From NCBI RefSeq assembly GCF_044324785.1, contig NZ_CP172127.1: a stretch of 64,000 bases of DNA; one strand, 5' to 3'. The stretch comes from Escherichia coli. Its GTDB lineage: Bacteria > Pseudomonadota > Gammaproteobacteria > Enterobacterales > Enterobacteriaceae. Below the pieces are notes generated by a model. It saw only the letters and a list, made by a program, of their open reading frames with translations. It was not told where the DNA came from and ran no database searches. The position numbers and the translations under genes were made by a program. Numbering within the stretch: the stretch's first letter is position 1; the number at the start of each line of letters is the position of its first letter. This document shows, in pieces, positions 4,451 to 21,000 of this stretch.

Positions 4451-7464
<3,014 letters not shown>

Positions 7465-10289: not shown

Positions 10290-10765
10290 TATTTACGTTC
10301 CCTGAAATAAAGGAGACCCTACGCTTTCCAAAAGGAATACATATATAGGGAAATATAAGGTGTGCACTTTCGAATTTTTAATCCAACTTCAGCAGACCGA
10401 TGGATAGTATCCCGCCATATAATATGAGTAAATCCGCTGATTTCCTGGAACGTGAGGAATATAACAATAGTGCCGTTTTTAACTAAATATCGTAAAAAAT
10501 ATTAGATATGATTCACGCTGACTCATAAGCCACAAATATAAATAACCTTGCTGCAAAACATGTGCGGCAGTTAAACATTCACAACATCATTAAATAATGA
10601 TTTTTTATTCACTGCATTTATTTTGTCCATCAATATGTGCCTTACACCGCAAAATTTATCCTTCACTCTGCCTTATATTGTCACGACTTCACGACATATC
10701 CGCGCTCATCACAAAACCGCCCCGCCGTTACAATTAACTATAATATTTTTTCATGGAGTCCAATA

Positions 10766-11276
10766 ATGGCAGCACTTACTGCAAGCTGTATTGACCTGAA
10801 TATTCAGGGCAATGGCACTTATTCCGTTCTGAAGCAGTTGGCGACAATGGCGTTACAAAACGGTTTTATCACCGACTCACACCAGTTCCTGCAAACTCTG
10901 CTGCTGCGCGAAAAAATGCACTCCACCGGTTTTGGTTCCGGCATCGCCGTGCCGCACGGTAAAAGCGCCTGCGTTAAACAACCGTTCGTGTTATTCGCCC
11001 GCAAAGCGCAGGCCATTGACTGGCAGGCCAGCGATGGCGAAATTGCTGGAGCGAACAGGAACGACGTTTTCGTGGATTTTTTATTACCCTCGCCCAACCG
11101 GTTGAGGTGAATAACGAAGTCGTTAACCATGTGCTGATCGCCTGTGCCGCCGCCGATGCGCGTCATGAGCTAAAAATATTTAGCTATCTGGCAAGCGTAT
11201 TGTGTCAGCATCCGGCAGAGGTTATTGCCGGGTTAACAGAATATGAGGCATTTATGGAGTTACTTCACAGGGGGTG
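10766..11276 (+). pseudogene. frvA: PTS EIIA (fructose-like) component FrvA, apparently frame-disrupted
   Basis: N-terminal EIIA-2 region MAALTASCIDLNIQGNG...GSGIAVPHGKSAC...WQASDGE runs to a stop at 11110; the expected C-terminal EIIA segment VNNEVVNHVLIACAAADARHELKIFSYLASVL... is in a different frame (stop 11276). No frvB/frvX/frvR follow. Confidence 0.6.
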
Positions 11277-12388: not shown

Positions 12389-12582
12389 TTAATTGCCTTA
12401 TAAATATATAGATAAGAGAGATAATATTTTAAATGAAAAAATGATCCGTCACTATACACATTTTGCTTATAAACAAACCGAAATCATTCACACCCCGAAT
12501 AATTCCTGCGACTTAAAATATAAATCGCAGGAAGCTATTTTAATTACCCGCTCTACCACTGGCGCAGGATATAAACTCTCAC

Positions 12583-14889
12583 CTACATTCCATAACGTTC
12601 AGAAATAGCAGCATGCTTCTCTTCATTCGCCCCGGCTTCTTTGGCAAGACGCCACCAGCACAACGGATGTTCCCAGTCAGCGGTCAATTCGTGCAAGGTC
12701 TTATCGATATCACCTTTAGAAACTGAACGCGGCGCGCTGATAACAAAGTAGAACGCGGGCAGCGGCTGTGCATCTTCTCCCTGCTGGCTGTCCGTTAACG
12801 TATAGTCCTCGTTACTGTTGCTCCAGTAGTACCAGTTTCGTTCACGGAGCGCCTCACGGAAGACATTAAACTGTTCTTCCCCAGGCATGACACCTTCACA
12901 GAACCAGGACTCGCCGTACTCAGTCGGGATAATGGTTTGCAGGCAGGCATAAAGTGGCGTGAAATTCTTCCGTTCTTCCTCATCCTCTGGTTGGGTGTTC
13001 AACATTTCTGCATCGAATACCACAACTTCATCAACATGTTGCGGATAATCGGTCCGGTAAGTTGGCTCAATGATCCTTGCTGTTACCGGCCCAATACGTT
13101 GAGCATAGTAATAGCGGTATTCATAATTTTCCCGGAAGCGAATGTTTAGCAGCCCCCATTTTTCGTCGATAAAACCTTCACCTTCCGTAAGTTCGATTTC
13201 CAGTTCAGCAGCAATAGCACGAACCAAATCCCATTGTTGCAGGATGCTGGCGGTCGCCATGATATCCCACTGGAGATTTCGAATATCTTCTTCACGGCTA
13301 ATCATCAGTTGCTGCAATTGTTGTAAATAATCCAGCTGTCGATCCCAGGCTTCCTGTTTTTGTGCTGCCCAGGAGCACATGCGATAAACGCCAACCCATT
13401 CACGCCCTTTTTCGTTTTGCAGCAACTGTTGCCCAATCGACTCCAGTTCACTCCAGTCTTCCTGTTGGTTGATCACTCGCGCACGGAACCACAAGGCCAT
13501 ATGTAGCAGCCCCGCCTGTTCATACTGCTTCGCCAGGTGCTCAATGGTTTGCAGATCGTCACGGTGGAGCAATAAATCCAACAGATCGAAGCAGAGATTG
13601 TTATCTTCCTGGAGGTGGCTTTCGACGTAGCGTTGCAGAAGTTCAATCGACTCATCAATCGCATTACAGGCATTTAACGCATTGACCAGTTTGCCCAGCA
13701 ATTCCGCATCATCTGGCGCGTTCAGGTAAGCGCGGCGGAATGTTTCGACGTCTTTTTCTGGATCTGGCTGCGTTTCTTCGTCGCTATTTTCAGGTACTTC
13801 TACAACCGGACGAGCAAGCAACTCCGCCTCTTTGGCGGCGATTTTTTCACTCAGTTCGAGAAACTCGCGATCAACCCCCAGTAACGCGCGTAATTTTGGC
13901 ATGTGTCGCTGGGCCAGTTTCATCGCTATTTTGGCAACCCAGACGGATTCACGCTCCAGCGCCAGGGTGATTTGCAGTTTTGCCAGATTAACCACTTTGC
14001 GATGCGCCCCGGCCTGTGAACGTTGCTCCAGCATTTTCTGGATGATGCGCGCCAGTTGCCAGTTGTTTCTTTGTGGATGACGGGGAAGTAACACAGTAAT
14101 GATTTTCAGCCATGACCCCCATGAATGGGGAGTCAGATCTGACCAACGCGGTAATTCCTCCCAGACTTCTTCGTCCTGCCCGCATAACGCCATGATGTAC
14201 AGTTTTTTGAGGTGATTACTAATGCGGTCGCGGCCCCAGTAATCATTGGCTTCTGTCAGCTCATCAATCAGTATGCGTGCTTCATCATAACGCTGAAGTT
14301 CAATCAGAATATCGGCACGAGTATAAAGTAATGCATCAATATCATCTTCCCCGGCTGCTTTAACTGCGTCGATTTGTCGATCCAGATAAGCCAGTGCCTC
14401 CTCTATTCTTTTGGAATCTATCAGTGCACTGGCATATTCAGTGGACAAACACTGAAAACAGCTCCAGGTCGGATCAATCCGCGCGATGGTTTCTTCACAT
14501 ACCGCCATGCGTTCATTCGCCCAGCCAGGTGCATCAATATTTTCGTAGCAGGCGGATAAATCCTGGGTAACGCAGATAGATTGTGGGCAATCTTTTGTCT
14601 CTTCCCGGTGCGCTTTTTCAAACAGCGCCACCACGTCTGGCAGTACTTTTTCGCCTTCTTCGCGGTTAGTGAGACGATGGCGCATTTCCCAATGACCAAT
14701 AAAAATCTCCAGCCACGGATTTTTTGCCACCTGGGTAAGTGCTTTTACTTCAGGTAACAGCGAATCGCACTTTTCCATTTGCAGGTGCATAACGCCTTCC
14801 GAATAATCATCGATAAGTTGCGGAATATACTCCTGCCCGGCATCGCGTAACTCCTTAGTATATTTGTGATACCACTCCCATATATCCAT
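12583..14889 (-). CDS. Large acidic helical-repeat protein of unknown function, operon partner of the GHKL ATPase
   Basis: 768-aa ORF, start 1 bp downstream of the preceding gene's stop (translational coupling); Trp/Glu/Leu-rich, predicted alpha-helical (TPR/HEAT-like by eye); no catalytic motif recognised. Confidence 0.6.
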   Translation of the reverse strand: MDIWEWYHKYTKELRDAGQEYIPQLIDDYSEGVMHLQMEKCDSLLPEVKALTQVAKNPWLEIFIGHWEMRHRLTNREEGEKVLPDVVALFEKAHREETKDCPQSICVTQDLSACYENIDAPGWANERMAVCEETIARIDPTWSCFQCLSTEYASALIDSKRIEEALAYLDRQIDAVKAAGEDDIDALLYTRADILIELQRYDEARILIDELTEANDYWGRDRISNHLKKLYIMALCGQDEEVWEELPRWSDLTPHSWGSWLKIITVLLPRHPQRNNWQLARIIQKMLEQRSQAGAHRKVVNLAKLQITLALERESVWVAKIAMKLAQRHMPKLRALLGVDREFLELSEKIAAKEAELLARPVVEVPENSDEETQPDPEKDVETFRRAYLNAPDDAELLGKLVNALNACNAIDESIELLQRYVESHLQEDNNLCFDLLDLLLHRDDLQTIEHLAKQYEQAGLLHMALWFRARVINQQEDWSELESIGQQLLQNEKGREWVGVYRMCSWAAQKQEAWDRQLDYLQQLQQLMISREEDIRNLQWDIMATASILQQWDLVRAIAAELEIELTEGEGFIDEKWGLLNIRFRENYEYRYYYAQRIGPVTARIIEPTYRTDYPQHVDEVVVFDAEMLNTQPEDEEERKNFTPLYACLQTIIPTEYGESWFCEGVMPGEEQFNVFREALRERNWYYWSNSNEDYTLTDSQQGEDAQPLPAFYFVISAPRSVSKGDIDKTLHELTADWEHPLCWWRLAKEAGANEEKHAAISERYGM

Positions 14890-14890
14890 T

Positions 14891-16726
14891 TTATTTTCCT
14901 TGATTAATTAAGACAGGAATAACCTGAGTAAAATCTTCCAGTGCCTGATGTAAATCCCACTGCTGTTCTTTATTACCGCTGGAGCACAGAATCACTTTCA
15001 GCGATTTTAATAACCGTAATGCTGCCGCTGGCTGTTGATGGTGTTGTAATGCCGTCACCAGTTGCATGACACAGGGGTTATTAAGGTTGATATAGAGACT
15101 TGAAGTTTTAGATTTTTGGATTTGCGAGGTAAATTGCCGCGCCAGCATTAATGCAGCGGTACTGATGCGTTTATCTGCGTCATCCTGTTCGAGAATTTGT
15201 TTTAATTCTGCTTCGCGGTCTGGCGTGACCACGAGCGGTAAAACCGCTGGTTCGAAGCGGGAGATAATTAATTGCTCGCCATCACAGAGATGCTCTTCCA
15301 GATATGCAACCTGCTCTTCGGGTAATTCTGCCAGGCTGAACAACTGCTCATTACCCGTTTGCGTACCGACTTCGATAATCCGGCAGTGATATAACAGCGC
15401 CCAACGACGTAAAAATGGCACCACCGCATAACGATCGCCACGGGCTACGGGCCGTTGCAGAATATGAAACAACATCTCTTCAAAACCGCCGTCGCGGCTT
15501 AACAGAATATGAATACTGTTATTAACGCGTAAATCCTTCGCCAGCAGCGCACCTTTTGACGTTGGCACCTGCAGGCGGTCTTTGAGTAAATCAAACAGAC
15601 GATCATCACACAAGGCCGCACCCAGCAACGCTTCGTTGTGGCGCATTAATACACGCCGCCAGATTTCTGGCTGGTTTTGTGCGAGATCGGACAAACCTGA
15701 AATCAGCGCCTCTTTTAGCGCCTCCTGTACCGCAACCCAGGTTTCATCCCGCTGGAGATCTTCCCGGCTCGCCGTCGGCGTCAGTTTCGATGACTCAATC
15801 ACGCCGCCAATAAATCCGGCCCAGGGCGGTAACAACTCACGCGCTTCATCATCCAGTAACATACCGCGCAAAAACAACGACAGGTTGCGGTTATCGCTGG
15901 TGCCGTAGGTTGCGCCATCCTGAATCCATAAAATCCCGACCGCATCGCTCATCCCCGCAGGTACTACCGGAATGGTGCAAATCGGTTCGAAGGAGGATTC
16001 AAACTGGGCGGCAAAGGCGAGATTTTTACGCTGCACCAGCGCGCGGTGCATGGTTACGCCTTCGGGGGCAACTTCACGCCACGGTGGTTGAAGTTTATTT
16101 ACCGGCTCGCCGGCATCGCCGACATAGACCGGTTCGTGCAGCAATATGCAGTAGCGGGAAAGAACGCGGTTCAGCAAATTGTTACTCGCCAGATGGCTAT
16201 ACTCTTCTTTGAGCGTCAGAATCACCTGCGTTCCCGTTTCCGAGGACTCATACGGCGTAACGGTATATTTTTGCCCGTCAGTAGAGTGGTATTTCCAGCG
16301 CTGATCCGGCGTTTGCCAGGATGTGGTCAACACCGTAACCTCTTTTGCCAGCACAAAGGCCGACAAAAAACCGAGGCCGAACATACCAATTAAACCGGTG
16401 TTGTCATCCTGCTGGCGCAACATTCGGGTATAACCCACGCCCACTGTCGCCAGGAAGCCGTGAATTTCACTTTCTGTCAGTCCCGCACCGGTATCGGTAA
16501 TGGTGATGATGGACTTCGCCACGTCTGCCACCACACGAATCGCGTTATCCTTTGGCGCATCGGGCTGCTCAATCCTGCGGCGAACGATCGCATCATGGCC
16601 GTTCTGCACCAGCTCGCGCACGGCAACCACGGGAGTGGAGTAAAGATGCTTACTAAGCACCTCAATTAAACCGTTTAAATTAACTTCTGTAGAATATGAA
16701 CTGCCAGGTAACTGTAATGTACTCAT
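14891..16726 (-). CDS. Hsp90/MORC-type GHKL ATPase paralog (HtpG-like, not housekeeping htpG)
   Basis: 611-aa ORF with Bergerat-fold motifs in order: ELVQNGHDA (motif I, cf. Hsp90 ELISNASDA), DTGAGLT (motif II, cf. DNGIGMT), GMFGLGFLSAF (G-loop, cf. GQFGVGFYSAF); AT-rich promoter region 16727..17037. Confidence 0.7.
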   Translation of the reverse strand: MSTLQLPGSSYSTEVNLNGLIEVLSKHLYSTPVVAVRELVQNGHDAIVRRRIEQPDAPKDNAIRVVADVAKSIITITDTGAGLTESEIHGFLATVGVGYTRMLRQQDDNTGLIGMFGLGFLSAFVLAKEVTVLTTSWQTPDQRWKYHSTDGQKYTVTPYESSETGTQVILTLKEEYSHLASNNLLNRVLSRYCILLHEPVYVGDAGEPVNKLQPPWREVAPEGVTMHRALVQRKNLAFAAQFESSFEPICTIPVVPAGMSDAVGILWIQDGATYGTSDNRNLSLFLRGMLLDDEARELLPPWAGFIGGVIESSKLTPTASREDLQRDETWVAVQEALKEALISGLSDLAQNQPEIWRRVLMRHNEALLGAALCDDRLFDLLKDRLQVPTSKGALLAKDLRVNNSIHILLSRDGGFEEMLFHILQRPVARGDRYAVVPFLRRWALLYHCRIIEVGTQTGNEQLFSLAELPEEQVAYLEEHLCDGEQLIISRFEPAVLPLVVTPDREAELKQILEQDDADKRISTAALMLARQFTSQIQKSKTSSLYINLNNPCVMQLVTALQHHQQPAAALRLLKSLKVILCSSGNKEQQWDLHQALEDFTQVIPVLINQGK

Positions 16727-17002
16727 TTTTCAATACTCATAATCCATCACCCACTATTGAAAATACATTGCTGTTTTTACAACCGGTGCAAGGTTTGTTA
16801 TTTTCATTCACGCATCGGAAACATTTATTTATTGACGCGATGATTAAAACAAAATGTCTTATATAAATAATGATTAATTCTTAATAGGATTAATGCGACT
16901 GGAGTATATCGATATAAACCGGAGTTAACGAGATAATTTCTTGTGGTGAAATTATTATTTAAATGCTGAATAATATATTGAGGATTATTTAATAGAAAAA
17001 TA

Positions 17003-17036
17003 AAACCGCAATCCAGAATCAGAATTGCGGTATTTC
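17003..17036 (-). terminator. Hairpin terminator downstream of fdhD
   Basis: accgcaatccagaatcagaattgcggt hairpin directly after the fdhD stop, followed by a T-run on the minus strand. Confidence 0.55.
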
Positions 17037-17037
17037 T

Positions 17038-17874
17038 TTAATTATGAATCAAACGCTGCGGATGGGTATAAACCGTTGCCCGACCCAGTTTACAAAAGCC
17101 CACCAGCGTCAAATTACAGCGTTCAGCCACTTCTACAGCAAGCGTGGTCGCGGCAGACACCGCAAACAAAATCTCTACGCCACACATCGCCGACTTTTGC
17201 ACCATTTCATAACTGGCACGGCTGGAAACCAGCACCGCACCTTGCTGCCAGCTTTCCCCTTCTTGTGACCGGCGGCCTAACAGTTTGTCCAGCGCCACAT
17301 GGCGACCCACGTCTTCATGCCCGCCGACCAGTTCGCCAGATGGCAACATCCATGCAGCGGCGTGAGTACAACCGGTCAGTTGCCCCACTGGCTGGAAATC
17401 ATTGAGATGACGTAATGCATCATCCAGTTTGTTGAGATCAAACGTCTGGGTGAACGGCAGCGGCTGCACCGGTTTTCCGATATCGTTAAGCTGTTCCACG
17501 CCGCACACGCCGCAGCCTGTACGCCCGGCCAGCGCCCGGCGACGTTCCTTCAACCCCATAAAGCGGCGGCTGGAAAGCTCAATTTGAACTTCAAGACCAT
17601 TACAGGAAGGAGCGACATCCATGCCGAAGATATCGCGCGGACTTTCTATTATCCCCTCGGAAAGCGAAAAACCGAGCGCAAAGTACTCAAGGTCTTTGGG
17701 CGACGCCATCATCACCACATGCGAAATGCCGTTGTAGACCAGCGCAACGGGAACTTCTTCCGCGACCTCATCTAACCGTGGGTGTTGTAAATCATCACGC
17801 CGCCATAACTCAATTTGACGAACACCTGTGATATTTGTCACATTTTCGATTTCTTTTTGCTGTGTTTTTTTCAC
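17038..17874 (-). CDS. fdhD: Formate dehydrogenase accessory sulfurtransferase
   Basis: 278-aa [62 protein letters not shown]...; divergent from fdoG. Confidence 0.92.
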
Positions 17875-18067
17875 TTTCTCTTAACCAGATAAGAACACAC
17901 ACACCAACATTATGGTATTCTGTTACAAACCCTTCCTGGATGGAGGGAAATTGAGCCAATTCTGGACCTTTGCGGCCCCTTCCGCAAAGAAAAATAACTC
18001 CCACTCCCTGCACACGCAGCAAGCGAATGTAAATGGGACGTGACAATGTCGAAACAAGGAGCAATCC

Positions 18068-21000
18068 ATGCAGGTCAGCAGAAGGCAGTTCTTTAAGATC
18101 TGCGCTGGCGGTATGGCAGGCACCACGGCAGCGGCACTGGGTTTTGCACCCAGCGTAGCACTCGCGGAAACTCGGCAGTATAAACTGCTGCGCACCCGCG
18201 AAACCCGTAATACCTGCACCTATTGTTCCGTAGGCTGTGGGCTGTTGATGTACAGCCTCGGTGACGGAGCAAAAAACGCCAAAGCATCTATCTTCCATAT
18301 CGAAGGCGATCCGGATCACCCGGTCAACCGCGGTGCACTTTGTCCGAAAGGCGCTGGCCTGGTGGATTTCATCCACTCCGAAAGCCGTCTGAAGTTTCCG
18401 GAATACCGTGCGCCAGGTTCTGATAAATGGCAGCAAATCAGTTGGGAAGAGGCGTTTGATCGCATCGCCAAACTGATGAAAGAAGACCGCGATGCTAACT
18501 ACATTGCGCAAAACGCCGAAGGCGTGACTGTTAACCGCTGGCTCTCCACCGGGATGCTGTGTGCTTCCGCGTCGAGTAACGAAACCGGCTATTTAACGCA
18601 AAAATTCTCCCGCGCGCTGGGTATGCTCGCGGTCGACAACCAGGCGCGTGTCTGACACGGACCAACGGTAGCAAGTCTTGCTCCAACATTTGGTCGCGGT
18701 GCGATGACCAACCACTGGGTCGACATCAAGAACGCCAACCTCGTCGTGGTGATGGGCGGTAACGCCGCTGAAGCTCACCCGGTCGGGTTCCGCTGGGCGA
18801 TGGAAGCCAAAATTCACAATGGCGCGAAGCTGATTGTGATCGATCCTCGCTTTACGCGTACGGCTGCGGTGGCTGACTACTATGCCCCTATTCGTTCCGG
18901 TACTGACATTGCTTTCCTGTCAGGCGTATTGCTGTACCTGCTGAACAATGAAAAATTCAACCGCGAATATACCGAAGCCTATACCAACGCCAGCCTTATC
19001 GTGCGTGAGGATTACGGCTTTGAAGATGGCCTGTTCACCGGCTACGACGCGGAAAAACGCAAGTACGATAAATCCTCCTGGACTTACGAACTGGACGAAA
19101 ACGGCTTCGCCAAACGCGATACCACGCTGCAACATCCGCGCTGCGTGTGGAACTTGCTGAAACAGCACGTTTCCCGCTACACGCCAGATGTGGTTGAAAA
19201 CATCTGTGGTACGCCAAAAGACGCGTTCCTGAAAGTCTGCGAATACATCGCCGAAACCAGTGCTCACGATAAAACTGCTTCGTTCCTGTATGCCCTCGGC
19301 TGGACGCAACACTCTGTTGGTGCGCAAAACATTCGTACGATGGCGATGATCCAGTTGCTGCTCGGCAATATGGGGATGGCAGGCGGCGGCGTTAACGCCC
19401 TGCGTGGTCACTCCAATATTCAGGGGCTGACGGACCTGGGGCTACTGTCGCAGAGCCTGCCGGGTTACATGACGCTGCCGAGCGAGAAGCAGACCGATCT
19501 GCAAACCTACCTTACCGCCAACACGCCAAAACCGCTGCTGGAAGGCCAGGTAAACTACTGGGGCAACTACCCGAAATTCTTCGTCTCCATGATGAAGGCC
19601 TTCTTTGGTGATAAAGCGACGGCGGAAAATAGCTGGGGCTTTGACTGGTTGCCGAAGTGGGATAAAGGCTACGACGTCCTGCAATACTTCGAGATGATGA
19701 AAGAAGGCAAGGTCAATGGCTATATCTGCCAGGGCTTTAACCCTGTTGCCTCATTCCCGAACAAAAACAAAGTGATCGGTTGTCTGTCGAAACTGAAGTT
19801 CCTCGTCACCATCGACCCGCTGAACACTGAAACCTCTAACTTCTGGCAGAACCACGGTGAGCTGAACGAAGTTGACTCGTCGAAGATCCAGACCGAAGTG
19901 TTCCGTCTGCCATCGACCTGCTTCGCGGAAGAGAACGGTTCTATCGTTAACTCCGGTCGCTGGTTGCAGTGGCACTGGAAAGGTGCGGACGCCCCGGGGA
20001 TTGCGCTGACAGATGGCGAGATCCTCTCCGGTATCTTCCTGCGCTTGCGCAAGATGTATGCCGAACAGGGTGGCGCAAACCCGGATCAGGTGCTGAACAT
20101 GACCTGGAACTACGCCATTCCGCATGAGCCGAAGTCGGAAGAAGTAGCGATGGAGAGCAACGGTAAGGCGCTGGCCGATATTACCGATCCGGCAACCGGT
20201 GCGGTTATCGTCAAGAAAGGCCAACAACTTAGCTCGTTCGCCCAACTGCGCGATGACGGTACGACCTCCTGTGGCTGCTGGATTTTCGCCGGTAGCTGGA
20301 CGCCAGAAGGTAACCAGATGGCGCGCCGTGATAACGCCGATCCGTCTGGCCTCGGTAACACGCTGGGCTGGGCATGGGCATGGCCGCTTAACCGCCGCAT
20401 TCTGTATAACCGCGCCTCCGCAGATCCGCAGGGTAACCCGTGGGATCCGAAGCGTCAGTTGCTGAAATGGGACGGCACCAAATGGACCGGCTGGGATATT
20501 CCGGACTACAGCGCAGCGCCTCCGGGCAGTGGCGTTGGGCCGTTTATCATGCAGCAGGAAGGCATGGGGCGTCTGTTTGCCCTCGATAAGATGGCGGAAG
20601 GTCCGTTCCCGGAACACTACGAGCCGTTTGAAACGCCGCTGGGAACTAACCCGCTGCATCCAAACGTTATCTCGAACCCGGCTGCACGTATCTTTAAAGA
20701 CGACGCCGAAGCGTTGGGTAAAGCCGATAAGTTCCCGTATGTCGGAACCACCTATCGTCTGACCGAGCACTTCCACTACTGGACCAAACACGCGCTGTTG
20801 AACGCGATTTTGCAACCAGAGCAGTTTGTGGAAATCGGGGAGTCGCTGGCGAATAAACTTGGCATTGCCCAGGGCGATACCGTGAAAGTCTCCTCCAACC
20901 GTGGCTATATCAAAGCCAAAGCGGTGGTGACCAAACGTATTCGCACGCTGAAAGCGAACGGCAAAGATATCGATACCATCGGTATTCCGATTCACTGGGG

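Follow-up and report, generated by a model that had tools for sequence, protein, structure and literature searches.

What is the function of two adjacent genes that some Escherichia coli chromosomes carry between yiiG and fdhD and that K-12 lacks? We addressed this question for one stretch of E. coli DNA (assembly GCF_044324785.1, contig NZ_CP172127.1; 64,000 nucleotides, hereafter the window), in which a minus-strand gene pair fills the interval, the first gene at 14891..16726 (611 aa) and the second at 12583..14889 (768 aa). An earlier note, made from the letters of the window, had described such a two-gene minus-strand unit, and both reading frames are present at these coordinates. It took the first product for an Hsp90/MORC-type GHKL ATPase and offered two explanations, a defence-island module or a specialised chaperone paralogue; the second fits our results best. 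The first gene encodes what we identify as an Hsp90 paralogue, the two genes are passed on together, in a constant order, in different phyla, and we see about an even chance that it constitutes a dedicated Hsp90 machine with an obligate co-chaperone or adaptor that carries tetratricopeptide repeats (TPRs) and a metal site, the link between the two proteins being one of genomic coupling.

We modelled the 611-aa protein with AlphaFold2 from 22 diverse orthologues. The model has a predicted local distance difference test (pLDDT) score of 79, with the region of the ATP lid at low confidence. In a Foldseek search of the PDB, its top 50 matches are, without exception, full-length chains of Hsp90, TRAP1 or HtpG, with a best E-value of 3e-31 at a template-modelling (TM) score of 0.65 and with TM scores of 0.60–0.68 over ~640–680 columns; the GHKL fold expected by the earlier note is thus borne out. 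A phmmer search of the PDB likewise returns TRAP1 and HtpG as best matches (E ~1e-29, residues 10–359), and Pfam gives HATPase_c_3 at 1.5e-8 and the HSP90 middle domain at 1.1e-7.

The three Bergerat motifs noticed earlier are located at residues 38–46 (ELVQNGHDA), 78–84 (DTGAGLT) and 114–124 (GMFGLGFLSAF), and they align to those of TRAP1 and HtpG. The middle-domain segment TPTASREDLQ aligns with LNLSRELLQ of TRAP1, its arginine being Arg321. None of the residues E38, N42, D45, D78, G80, G82, G114, G117, G119, R321 and E322 varies among the 22 orthologues. By alignment, E38 represents the catalytic glutamate, N42, D45 and D78 are the Mg/ATP ligands, and R321 is the catalytic arginine. Judged from sequence and model, the protein is a full three-domain (N-M-C) Hsp90-family ATPase, consisting of the N-terminal Bergerat ATPase, the middle domain with Arg321 and a C-terminal domain, with all the residues for ATP binding and hydrolysis, and these residues predict that it is ATPase-competent. 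The Hsp90 half of the earlier assignment thus holds for the full length of the protein, whereas the MORC/paraMORC half is ruled out: Pfam and NCBIfam report Hsp90 and not MORC or MutL, and the 50 best folds all belong to the Hsp90 family.

The protein shares with HtpG and TRAP1 (the Hsp90A lineage) the full-length three-domain fold, the ATP motifs and the middle-domain arginine, although identity in structural alignments is ~18%. The best NCBIfam match, NF010683 ('HSP90 family protein'), scores 285 bits over residues 13–571 (cut-off 455), and the HtpG equivalog NF003555 scores 194 bits (cut-off 371). Because these scores lie below the cut-offs, we assign the protein as an Hsp90 paralogue and not as a second htpG, in agreement with the earlier reading that it is not the housekeeping HtpG. 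Like bacterial and mitochondrial Hsp90, it lacks an EEVD tail; no conserved acidic C-terminal tail (MEEVD) was found in the 22 orthologues, whose C-termini are variable and not acidic (e.g., ...VLINQGK, ...LLAR and ...IVEH). Unlike HtpG and TRAP1, the paralogue is followed by a dedicated partner gene.

Both E. coli and Pseudomonas aeruginosa have htpG in addition to the paralogue. Phylogenetic work distinguishes three groups of bacterial Hsp90, A, B and C (Chen et al. 2006, PMC1525184). Press et al. (2013, PMC3708813, Text S1) note that hsp90A is never found together with hsp90B, and they describe hsp90C as patchy, as horizontally transferred and as having a 'potentially distinct functional role'. 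Since co-existence with htpG and a patchy distribution fit this rule, hsp90B is excluded and the 611-aa protein probably belongs to hsp90C (HtpG group C), a placement made from the published description of that class.

The 768-aa partner is acidic (pI 4.7), rich in tryptophan (27 Trp, 3.5%) and mostly helical, as the earlier note had observed, and it contains 14 cysteines. It has no match in NCBIfam, and a single-sequence Pfam search gives weak TPR matches only, but a profile of the family clearly matches TPR proteins of the PDB at positions ~150–250 and 375–535. In the AlphaFold model (pLDDT 90.8), a helical/TPR array (residues 1 to ~360) is followed by a disordered acidic linker (residues 364–372), a TPR array (residues 377–562) and an orphan alpha/beta C-terminal domain (residues 579–768). 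Searches of structure libraries with the full model return TPR proteins only, and its superhelical geometry is sensor- or scaffold-like. The absence of a recognisable catalytic motif is also supported: Pfam and profile searches reveal no nuclease, TIR, protease or pore motif, nor do they detect an output domain of the DNA-binding, kinase, phosphatase, cyclase or any other type.

The ends of the partner are peculiar to this family. Profiles of the N-terminal 165 and the C-terminal 206 residues find nothing in Pfam or the PDB. A search of 1.84 billion representative proteins places the C-terminal domain in 414 clusters, all of them proteins of ~750–790 aa with the same architecture or fragments; no other architecture with this domain is found in that set, and the N-terminal profile, searched for other architectures, returns fragments only. 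In 209 full-length family members, just 25 positions are at least 95% identical, and 13 of them fall within residues 47–151. The best-conserved segment (residues 41–160) contains H66-W67 and C101-P-Q-x-x-C106 ... C144-x-x-C147, and the near-invariant residues include H66, W67, C101, P102, Q103, C106, D110, C144 and C147. This C-x4-C ... C-x2-C arrangement with its histidine suggests a zinc or redox site.

To follow the pair across bacteria, we used one genome per species and found the partner in 157 genomes, so the pair is no peculiarity of one strain. They include Xanthomonas (~30 species), Stenotrophomonas, Lysobacter, P. aeruginosa PA7, several Enterobacterales, Rhodocyclales and Burkholderiales, and further an alphaproteobacterial metagenome-assembled genome (MAG), Holophaga and a Chloroflexi MAG. 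In ~70 of the 71 loci with enough upstream DNA, the gene just before that of the partner, on the same strand and at a distance of -4 to +122 nt, encodes the Hsp90 paralogue. Loci with this fixed order span Gamma-, Beta- and Alphaproteobacteria, Acidobacteria (Holophaga) and Chloroflexi (the MAG), and the order also holds in the most distant relatives, which are ~30% identical and come from metagenomic contigs. No third gene beside the pair is common between genera. One Xanthomonas axonopodis copy matches in part only.

The two proteins also diverge together. Across 23 genomes, their pairwise identities correlate with r = 0.94 overall and 0.88 for distant pairs, at mean identities of 59% for the ATPase and 42% for the partner. 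Among Escherichia alleles, the ratio of nonsynonymous to synonymous substitution rates (dN/dS) is 0.03–0.06 for the ATPase and 0.05–0.11 for the partner, with no partner domain above 0.23, and neither frame is broken in any of the five Escherichia alleles or in the one Salmonella allele that we compared, at dS values of up to 0.55. By these values, both genes are under strong purifying selection. With hundreds of full-length homologues and a dN/dS of 0.03–0.11, the two-gene observation is far beyond chance.

The dS values along the partner gene are mosaic: against strain E2348/69, they are ~0.5–1.2 in codons 1–160 and 0.11–0.14 in codons 161–562. This suggests intragenic recombination between Escherichia alleles.

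The counterpart in P. aeruginosa offers a view of expression. In strain PA7, the ATPase is 57% and the partner 40% identical to the proteins of the window. From synteny and the PAO1 map, the P. aeruginosa pair apparently corresponds to PA1068 ('hsp90 family') and PA1069 (hypothetical). PA1069 'appears operonic' with the Hsp90 gene, and the abundance of its product rises in the presence of Ca2+ and in biofilms (PMC4053335). The gene is bound and activated by AmrZ (PMC3946381), and the protein is 4.3-fold up in the proteome of a crc mutant (PMC3003667), varies in abundance in surface-attached cells (PMC5541441) and co-precipitates with BatR (PMC13411936), while the transcript is about fourfold down at 46 °C (PMC4957987). 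All of these papers report omics-level observations and assign no function to PA1068 or PA1069 (PMC4053335, PMC3946381, PMC3003667, PMC5541441, PMC13411936, PMC4957987). The literature searched, under several names of the family, contains no functional study, so the earlier description of the system as uncharacterised stands. As a side observation, a P. aeruginosa 90%-identity cluster of the 764-aa partner also lists 'ATP-binding protein' entries of 611–636 aa that resemble the Hsp90 paralogue; this mixture is either a clustering artefact or a result of fused gene calls in some assemblies.

How would such a machine work? The two genes would give rise to a self-contained cytoplasmic unit, with the partner produced from the same transcript and in roughly matched amounts. 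The partner would bind the Hsp90 paralogue as its dedicated co-chaperone or adaptor, and it might also be its main client or a scaffold. One or a few specific substrates could be held as extended segments in the grooves of its TPRs, and binding would be gated by the cluster of H66 with C101, C106, C144 and C147, acting as a zinc or redox-sensitive site. The bound protein would then be remodelled or released as ATP drives the Hsp90 dimer to close. We propose a role in conditional proteostasis or assembly, rather than in the heat-shock response; in P. aeruginosa, the partner is under the influence of biofilm growth, Ca2+, AmrZ and Crc.

The evidence for a dedicated Hsp90 machine consists of the full-length Hsp90 fold, the invariant catalytic residues, the fixed gene order, the correlated identities and the purifying selection, to which we add the true TPR arrays of the partner, its Cys/His hallmark, the housekeeping surroundings of the pair (see below) and the physiological regulation of PA1069. 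Several points weigh against it. The coupling of the two proteins is genomic and their physical interaction is a prediction, and the Hsp90 paralogue has no known client. Thorsellia anophelis carries a full-length partner (4755..7061) with no Hsp90-paralogue gene in the 4.7 kb upstream. The pair is dispensable, as 95% of complete E. coli genomes do without it. The metal site rests on conservation, and the positions of the helices suggest that the two cysteine pairs are possibly apart in a monomer. The absence of an acidic C-terminal tail means that the classical EEVD-TPR clamp cannot be the docking mode. Finally, the drop of the PA1069 mRNA at 46 °C would be unusual for a general heat-shock chaperone. 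In Thorsellia, the 520-aa open reading frame upstream of the partner is unrelated; no other locus among those retained departs clearly from the pairing.

Eukaryotic Hsp90 works with TPR co-chaperones (PMC11687934). Hop/Sti1, PP5, CHIP and Sgt1 (the latter with the zinc-binding CHORD protein Rar1) have TPRs like the partner, but the resemblance ends there: the acidic C-terminal MEEVD peptide, to which EEVD-clamp co-chaperones bind, is missing from the 611-aa orthologues (n = 22). Unlike that of a heat-induced chaperone, the P. aeruginosa partner transcript falls at elevated temperature (46 °C; PMC4957987). The hsp90B and hsp90C classes are likewise divergent forms of Hsp90 beside hsp90A and are patchy and apparently horizontally transferred (PMC3708813, said of hsp90C), but the papers on them (PMC1525184, PMC3708813) are phylogenetic, set the paralogues aside from analysis and do not mention a partner gene. 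Bacterial Hsp90 has been described as having no identified co-chaperones (PMC7926864). Since classes B and C of bacterial Hsp90 paralogues were already described phylogenetically in 2004–2013, and the family is widespread and already present in databases as 'hypothetical', novelty lies in the obligate partner and in the function yet to be assigned, not in a second Hsp90 as such. In RefSeq, the first product is listed as 'ATP-binding protein' and the second as either 'hypothetical protein' or 'tetratricopeptide repeat protein'.

Does the pair belong to a defence system? Our neighbourhood survey (counted as nine) covered three strains of E. coli as well as Salmonella, P. aeruginosa, Xanthomonas, Stenotrophomonas, Cronobacter and a Rhodocyclaceae MAG, along with two metagenomic contigs. 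None of the nine contains defence, integrase or transposase genes; the pair is surrounded by metabolic and housekeeping genes instead. In P. aeruginosa, the order is LysR, pair, braG–braC, then flgB. In Xanthomonas, an AraC-type regulator precedes and an Old Yellow Enzyme (OYE) reductase follows the pair, with radA nearby, and in Stenotrophomonas, the pair is situated between radA and ccsA, ffh and rpsP–rimM–trmD–rplS; both are core-genome surroundings. In Cronobacter, gltP and hok/gef lie on one side and yjdP and phn on the other; in Escherichia, Salmonella and Superficieibacter, the neighbour is fdhD, and the other loci have unrelated metabolic genes.

Direct searches for defence genes agree with this picture. 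Against PADLOC-DB 2.0 (dated 2023, with newer systems outside its coverage), the partner has no match, and the ATPase matches over residues 13–138 only, weakly to TmtA (E 1e-5) and to a restriction-enzyme GHKL domain (E 0.002). A phage collection contains no true phage-borne copies, its single 'phage' match being a misfiled Salmonella chromosomal contig, and among plasmids the matches are limited to one megaplasmid of P. aeruginosa and two small records from Xanthomonas. MORC/paraMORC and other GHKL defence modules likewise consist of a Bergerat-fold ATPase followed by a large partner gene, to which the weak TmtA and restriction-enzyme matches correspond, but they differ in that the middle and C-terminal domains of the 611-aa protein are of the Hsp90 type and that the pair has no restriction-modification or defence neighbours. 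A defence system is thus unsupported by the PADLOC scan, the neighbourhood survey and the phage and plasmid searches, and the defence-island reading of the earlier note finds no support either, the dN/dS values showing no arms-race signature.

What other functions could a GHKL ATPase and a TPR protein have together? One is signalling or regulation instead of folding: the closed TPR superhelix of the partner could be a sensor of peptides or small ligands in the manner of MalT domain III and the Rap/NprR/AimR receptors, with the Hsp90-type ATPase taking the part of the STAND NTPase in a conformational switch and with an output made through protein contacts of the C-terminal domain. Generic TPR scaffolds (APC/C, IFT-A and Ctr9) score almost equally well in the structure searches, and neither an output domain in the partner nor a conserved neighbouring target gene is found, and we regard this switch as unlikely. 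A bolder form, in which the Hsp90-type GHKL clamp replaces the NTPase of STAND/NLR proteins and drives a TPR receptor with a zinc/redox site and an unrecognised effector, is by analogy conceivable and distinctly improbable. If it were true, the pair would be a bacterial counterpart of the eukaryotic NLR–Hsp90–SGT1–RAR1 system, acting in immunity or in stress-triggered cell fate. Alternatively, the 768-aa protein could itself be the functional scaffold and a difficult client, which the Hsp90 paralogue does nothing but fold and maintain. Strict co-inheritance with the chaperone gene first, the higher conservation of the ATPase and the solitary partner of Thorsellia are in line with this idea. 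TPR solenoids usually fold without dedicated ATP-dependent chaperones, which argues against it, as does the conservation of the partner, which peaks in a compact cluster of N-terminal motifs that resembles an interaction or cofactor site and not a folding problem; we consider such a chaperone–client pair somewhat less probable than a ligand-sensing switch.

The defence hypothesis, in its most specific form, combines the GHKL ATPase, a TPR sensor and an unrecognised C-terminal effector into an anti-phage or conflict system that is triggered by infection. It could draw on the patchy occurrence in E. coli and Salmonella, on the distinct Enterobacteriaceae lineages, which imply horizontal transfer, on the AT-rich upstream region, on the weak TmtA match to the N-terminal GHKL fold and on the existence of GHKL modules with large partners in defence systems, which was the lead of the earlier note. 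Against these stand the partner's missing PADLOC match, the nine neighbourhoods, the core-genome surroundings in Xanthomonas and Stenotrophomonas, the strong purifying selection with no fast-evolving domain, the lack of true phage-borne copies, the uniformly chromosomal position of the E. coli copies at one locus and the absence of a nuclease, TIR, protease or pore motif, so that an infection-triggered system appears quite improbable to us. That the pair is a decaying remnant with no current function in E. coli would agree with its absence from 95% of the complete genomes and with the failure to find a consensus promoter. The selection analysis contradicts it: the frames are intact in five Escherichia alleles and the Salmonella allele, dN/dS is 0.03–0.11 and the upstream leader is conserved, which makes decay highly improbable.

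Returning to the dedicated Hsp90 machine, a complex between the two proteins would make it the first bacterial Hsp90–co-chaperone (or chaperone–adaptor) system. It would offer a simple, genetically tractable model of how TPR partners direct an Hsp90 clamp and would provide a function for an orphan family of at least ~400 sequence clusters. In the main functional analysis that we found, divergent bacterial Hsp90 paralogues were set aside (PMC3708813). The proposal is easily testable, with E2348/69, Xanthomonas, Stenotrophomonas and, apparently, PAO1 as natural carriers and K-12 as a strain that naturally lacks the pair.

The history of the locus can be read from its boundaries. In K-12, yiiG and fdhD are adjacent with 152 bp between them, in agreement with the adjacency given in the earlier note. 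The segment absent from K-12 measures 4498 bp and is flanked by an 8-bp direct repeat, TAATTAAA, the left copy of which lies at 12539..12546 and the right copy, which includes the fdhD stop codon, at 17037..17044. We found no terminal inverted repeats at the segment ends and no integrase, transposase or other mobility genes at the locus. With the 8-bp direct repeat as the sole such feature, insertion of a transposon or island was rejected. The repeat is compatible with either a microhomology deletion in K-12-like lineages or an old insertion.

From fdhD to fdoG, the window shares 99% identity with several E. coli chromosomes, in keeping with its being E. coli DNA. Within E. coli, the distribution is patchy: the pair is present in 254 of 5,426 complete genomes, in every case as a single chromosomal copy at the same locus, and the alleles form groups with ~96.7%, 94.6% and 91.4% nucleotide identity to the window. 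The pair is also found in E. fergusonii, E. ruysiae, E. whittamii and the cryptic Escherichia clades, and in Salmonella Infantis and Superficieibacter it again sits in the fdhD neighbourhood. Because it resides at the fdhD site in these genera and in other Escherichia, an old residence with repeated loss, or recombination of the flanks, seems more likely than a recent insertion. E. coli SMS-3-5 carries the pair together with yiiG. In the type strain of enteropathogenic E. coli, E2348/69 (NZ_CP059840.2 4720733-4730875), the pair is present and yiiG is missing, frvR being followed directly by the partner gene; the interval from yiiG to fdhD thus exists in at least three states in E. coli (yiiG only, both, pair only).

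In Cronobacter, the pair occupies a different chromosomal site beside two hok/gef toxin genes (4894..5596 of that locus), and the partner is ~41% identical to that of Escherichia. From the different site and the low identity, we conclude that at least two lineages of the module were acquired separately by Enterobacteriaceae.

The two genes of the window are closely packed. Their junction (14887..14901, minus strand) reads ...AAGGAAAATAA-A-ATG, with the stop codon TAA of the first gene at 14893..14891, one spacer base at 14890 and the ATG of the partner at 14889..14887. An AAGGA Shine-Dalgarno sequence for the partner gene (14901..14897) is situated seven bases 5' of this ATG, within the end of the 611-aa gene. 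The translational coupling claimed earlier is therefore plausible from this close packing, although the genes do not overlap.

Upstream of the Hsp90 paralogue lies a five-codon open reading frame, MSIEK* (16723..16740, minus strand), whose stop codon TGA shares bases with the start codon of the paralogue gene (ATGA). It is kept in five Escherichia lineages and in Salmonella Infantis, and it may serve in translational coupling or as a leader. Ahead of it is a GGTGATGG stretch. In Superficieibacter, an upstream ATG is in frame with the paralogue gene, unlike the arrangement in Escherichia.

The adjoining region (16741..17004, minus strand; GC 0.38) is highly conserved among Escherichia alleles. 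The AT-rich composition on which the earlier note had based a promoter region is real, at a GC content of 0.38–0.39 upstream of the 611-aa gene vs ~0.50 within both genes, but scanning the minus strand of this region with the consensus yields no sigma-70-like site, and neither a sigma-32 nor a sigma-70 promoter for the pair is identifiable by eye or scan; we assume that the promoter lies here. The far end of the region as first delimited, 17005..17031 (minus strand), is instead the fdhD terminator hairpin according to a terminator scan. This hairpin is specific to module-bearing genomes and differs from the fdhD terminator of K-12. The K-12 terminator matches the hairpin that lies 3' of the partner gene at 12505..12531 (minus strand), identified as its homologue by alignment with the K-12 intergenic region, and not the window's own fdhD terminator. 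No RNA elements were found inside the module.

Two observations concern the flanks. Upstream of fdoG, 17899..18097 (plus strand) matches the FdoG-1 5' untranslated region thermometer (RF02778) of Rfam over the full length of the model, at a sub-threshold score of 32 bits (gathering score 50, E 5e-5). On the other side, comparison with SMS-3-5 reveals a clean 4205-bp deletion in the frv operon of the window at 11041/11042 (region 10637..11166), which fuses a truncated frvA to the 3' end of frvR and removes frvB and frvX.

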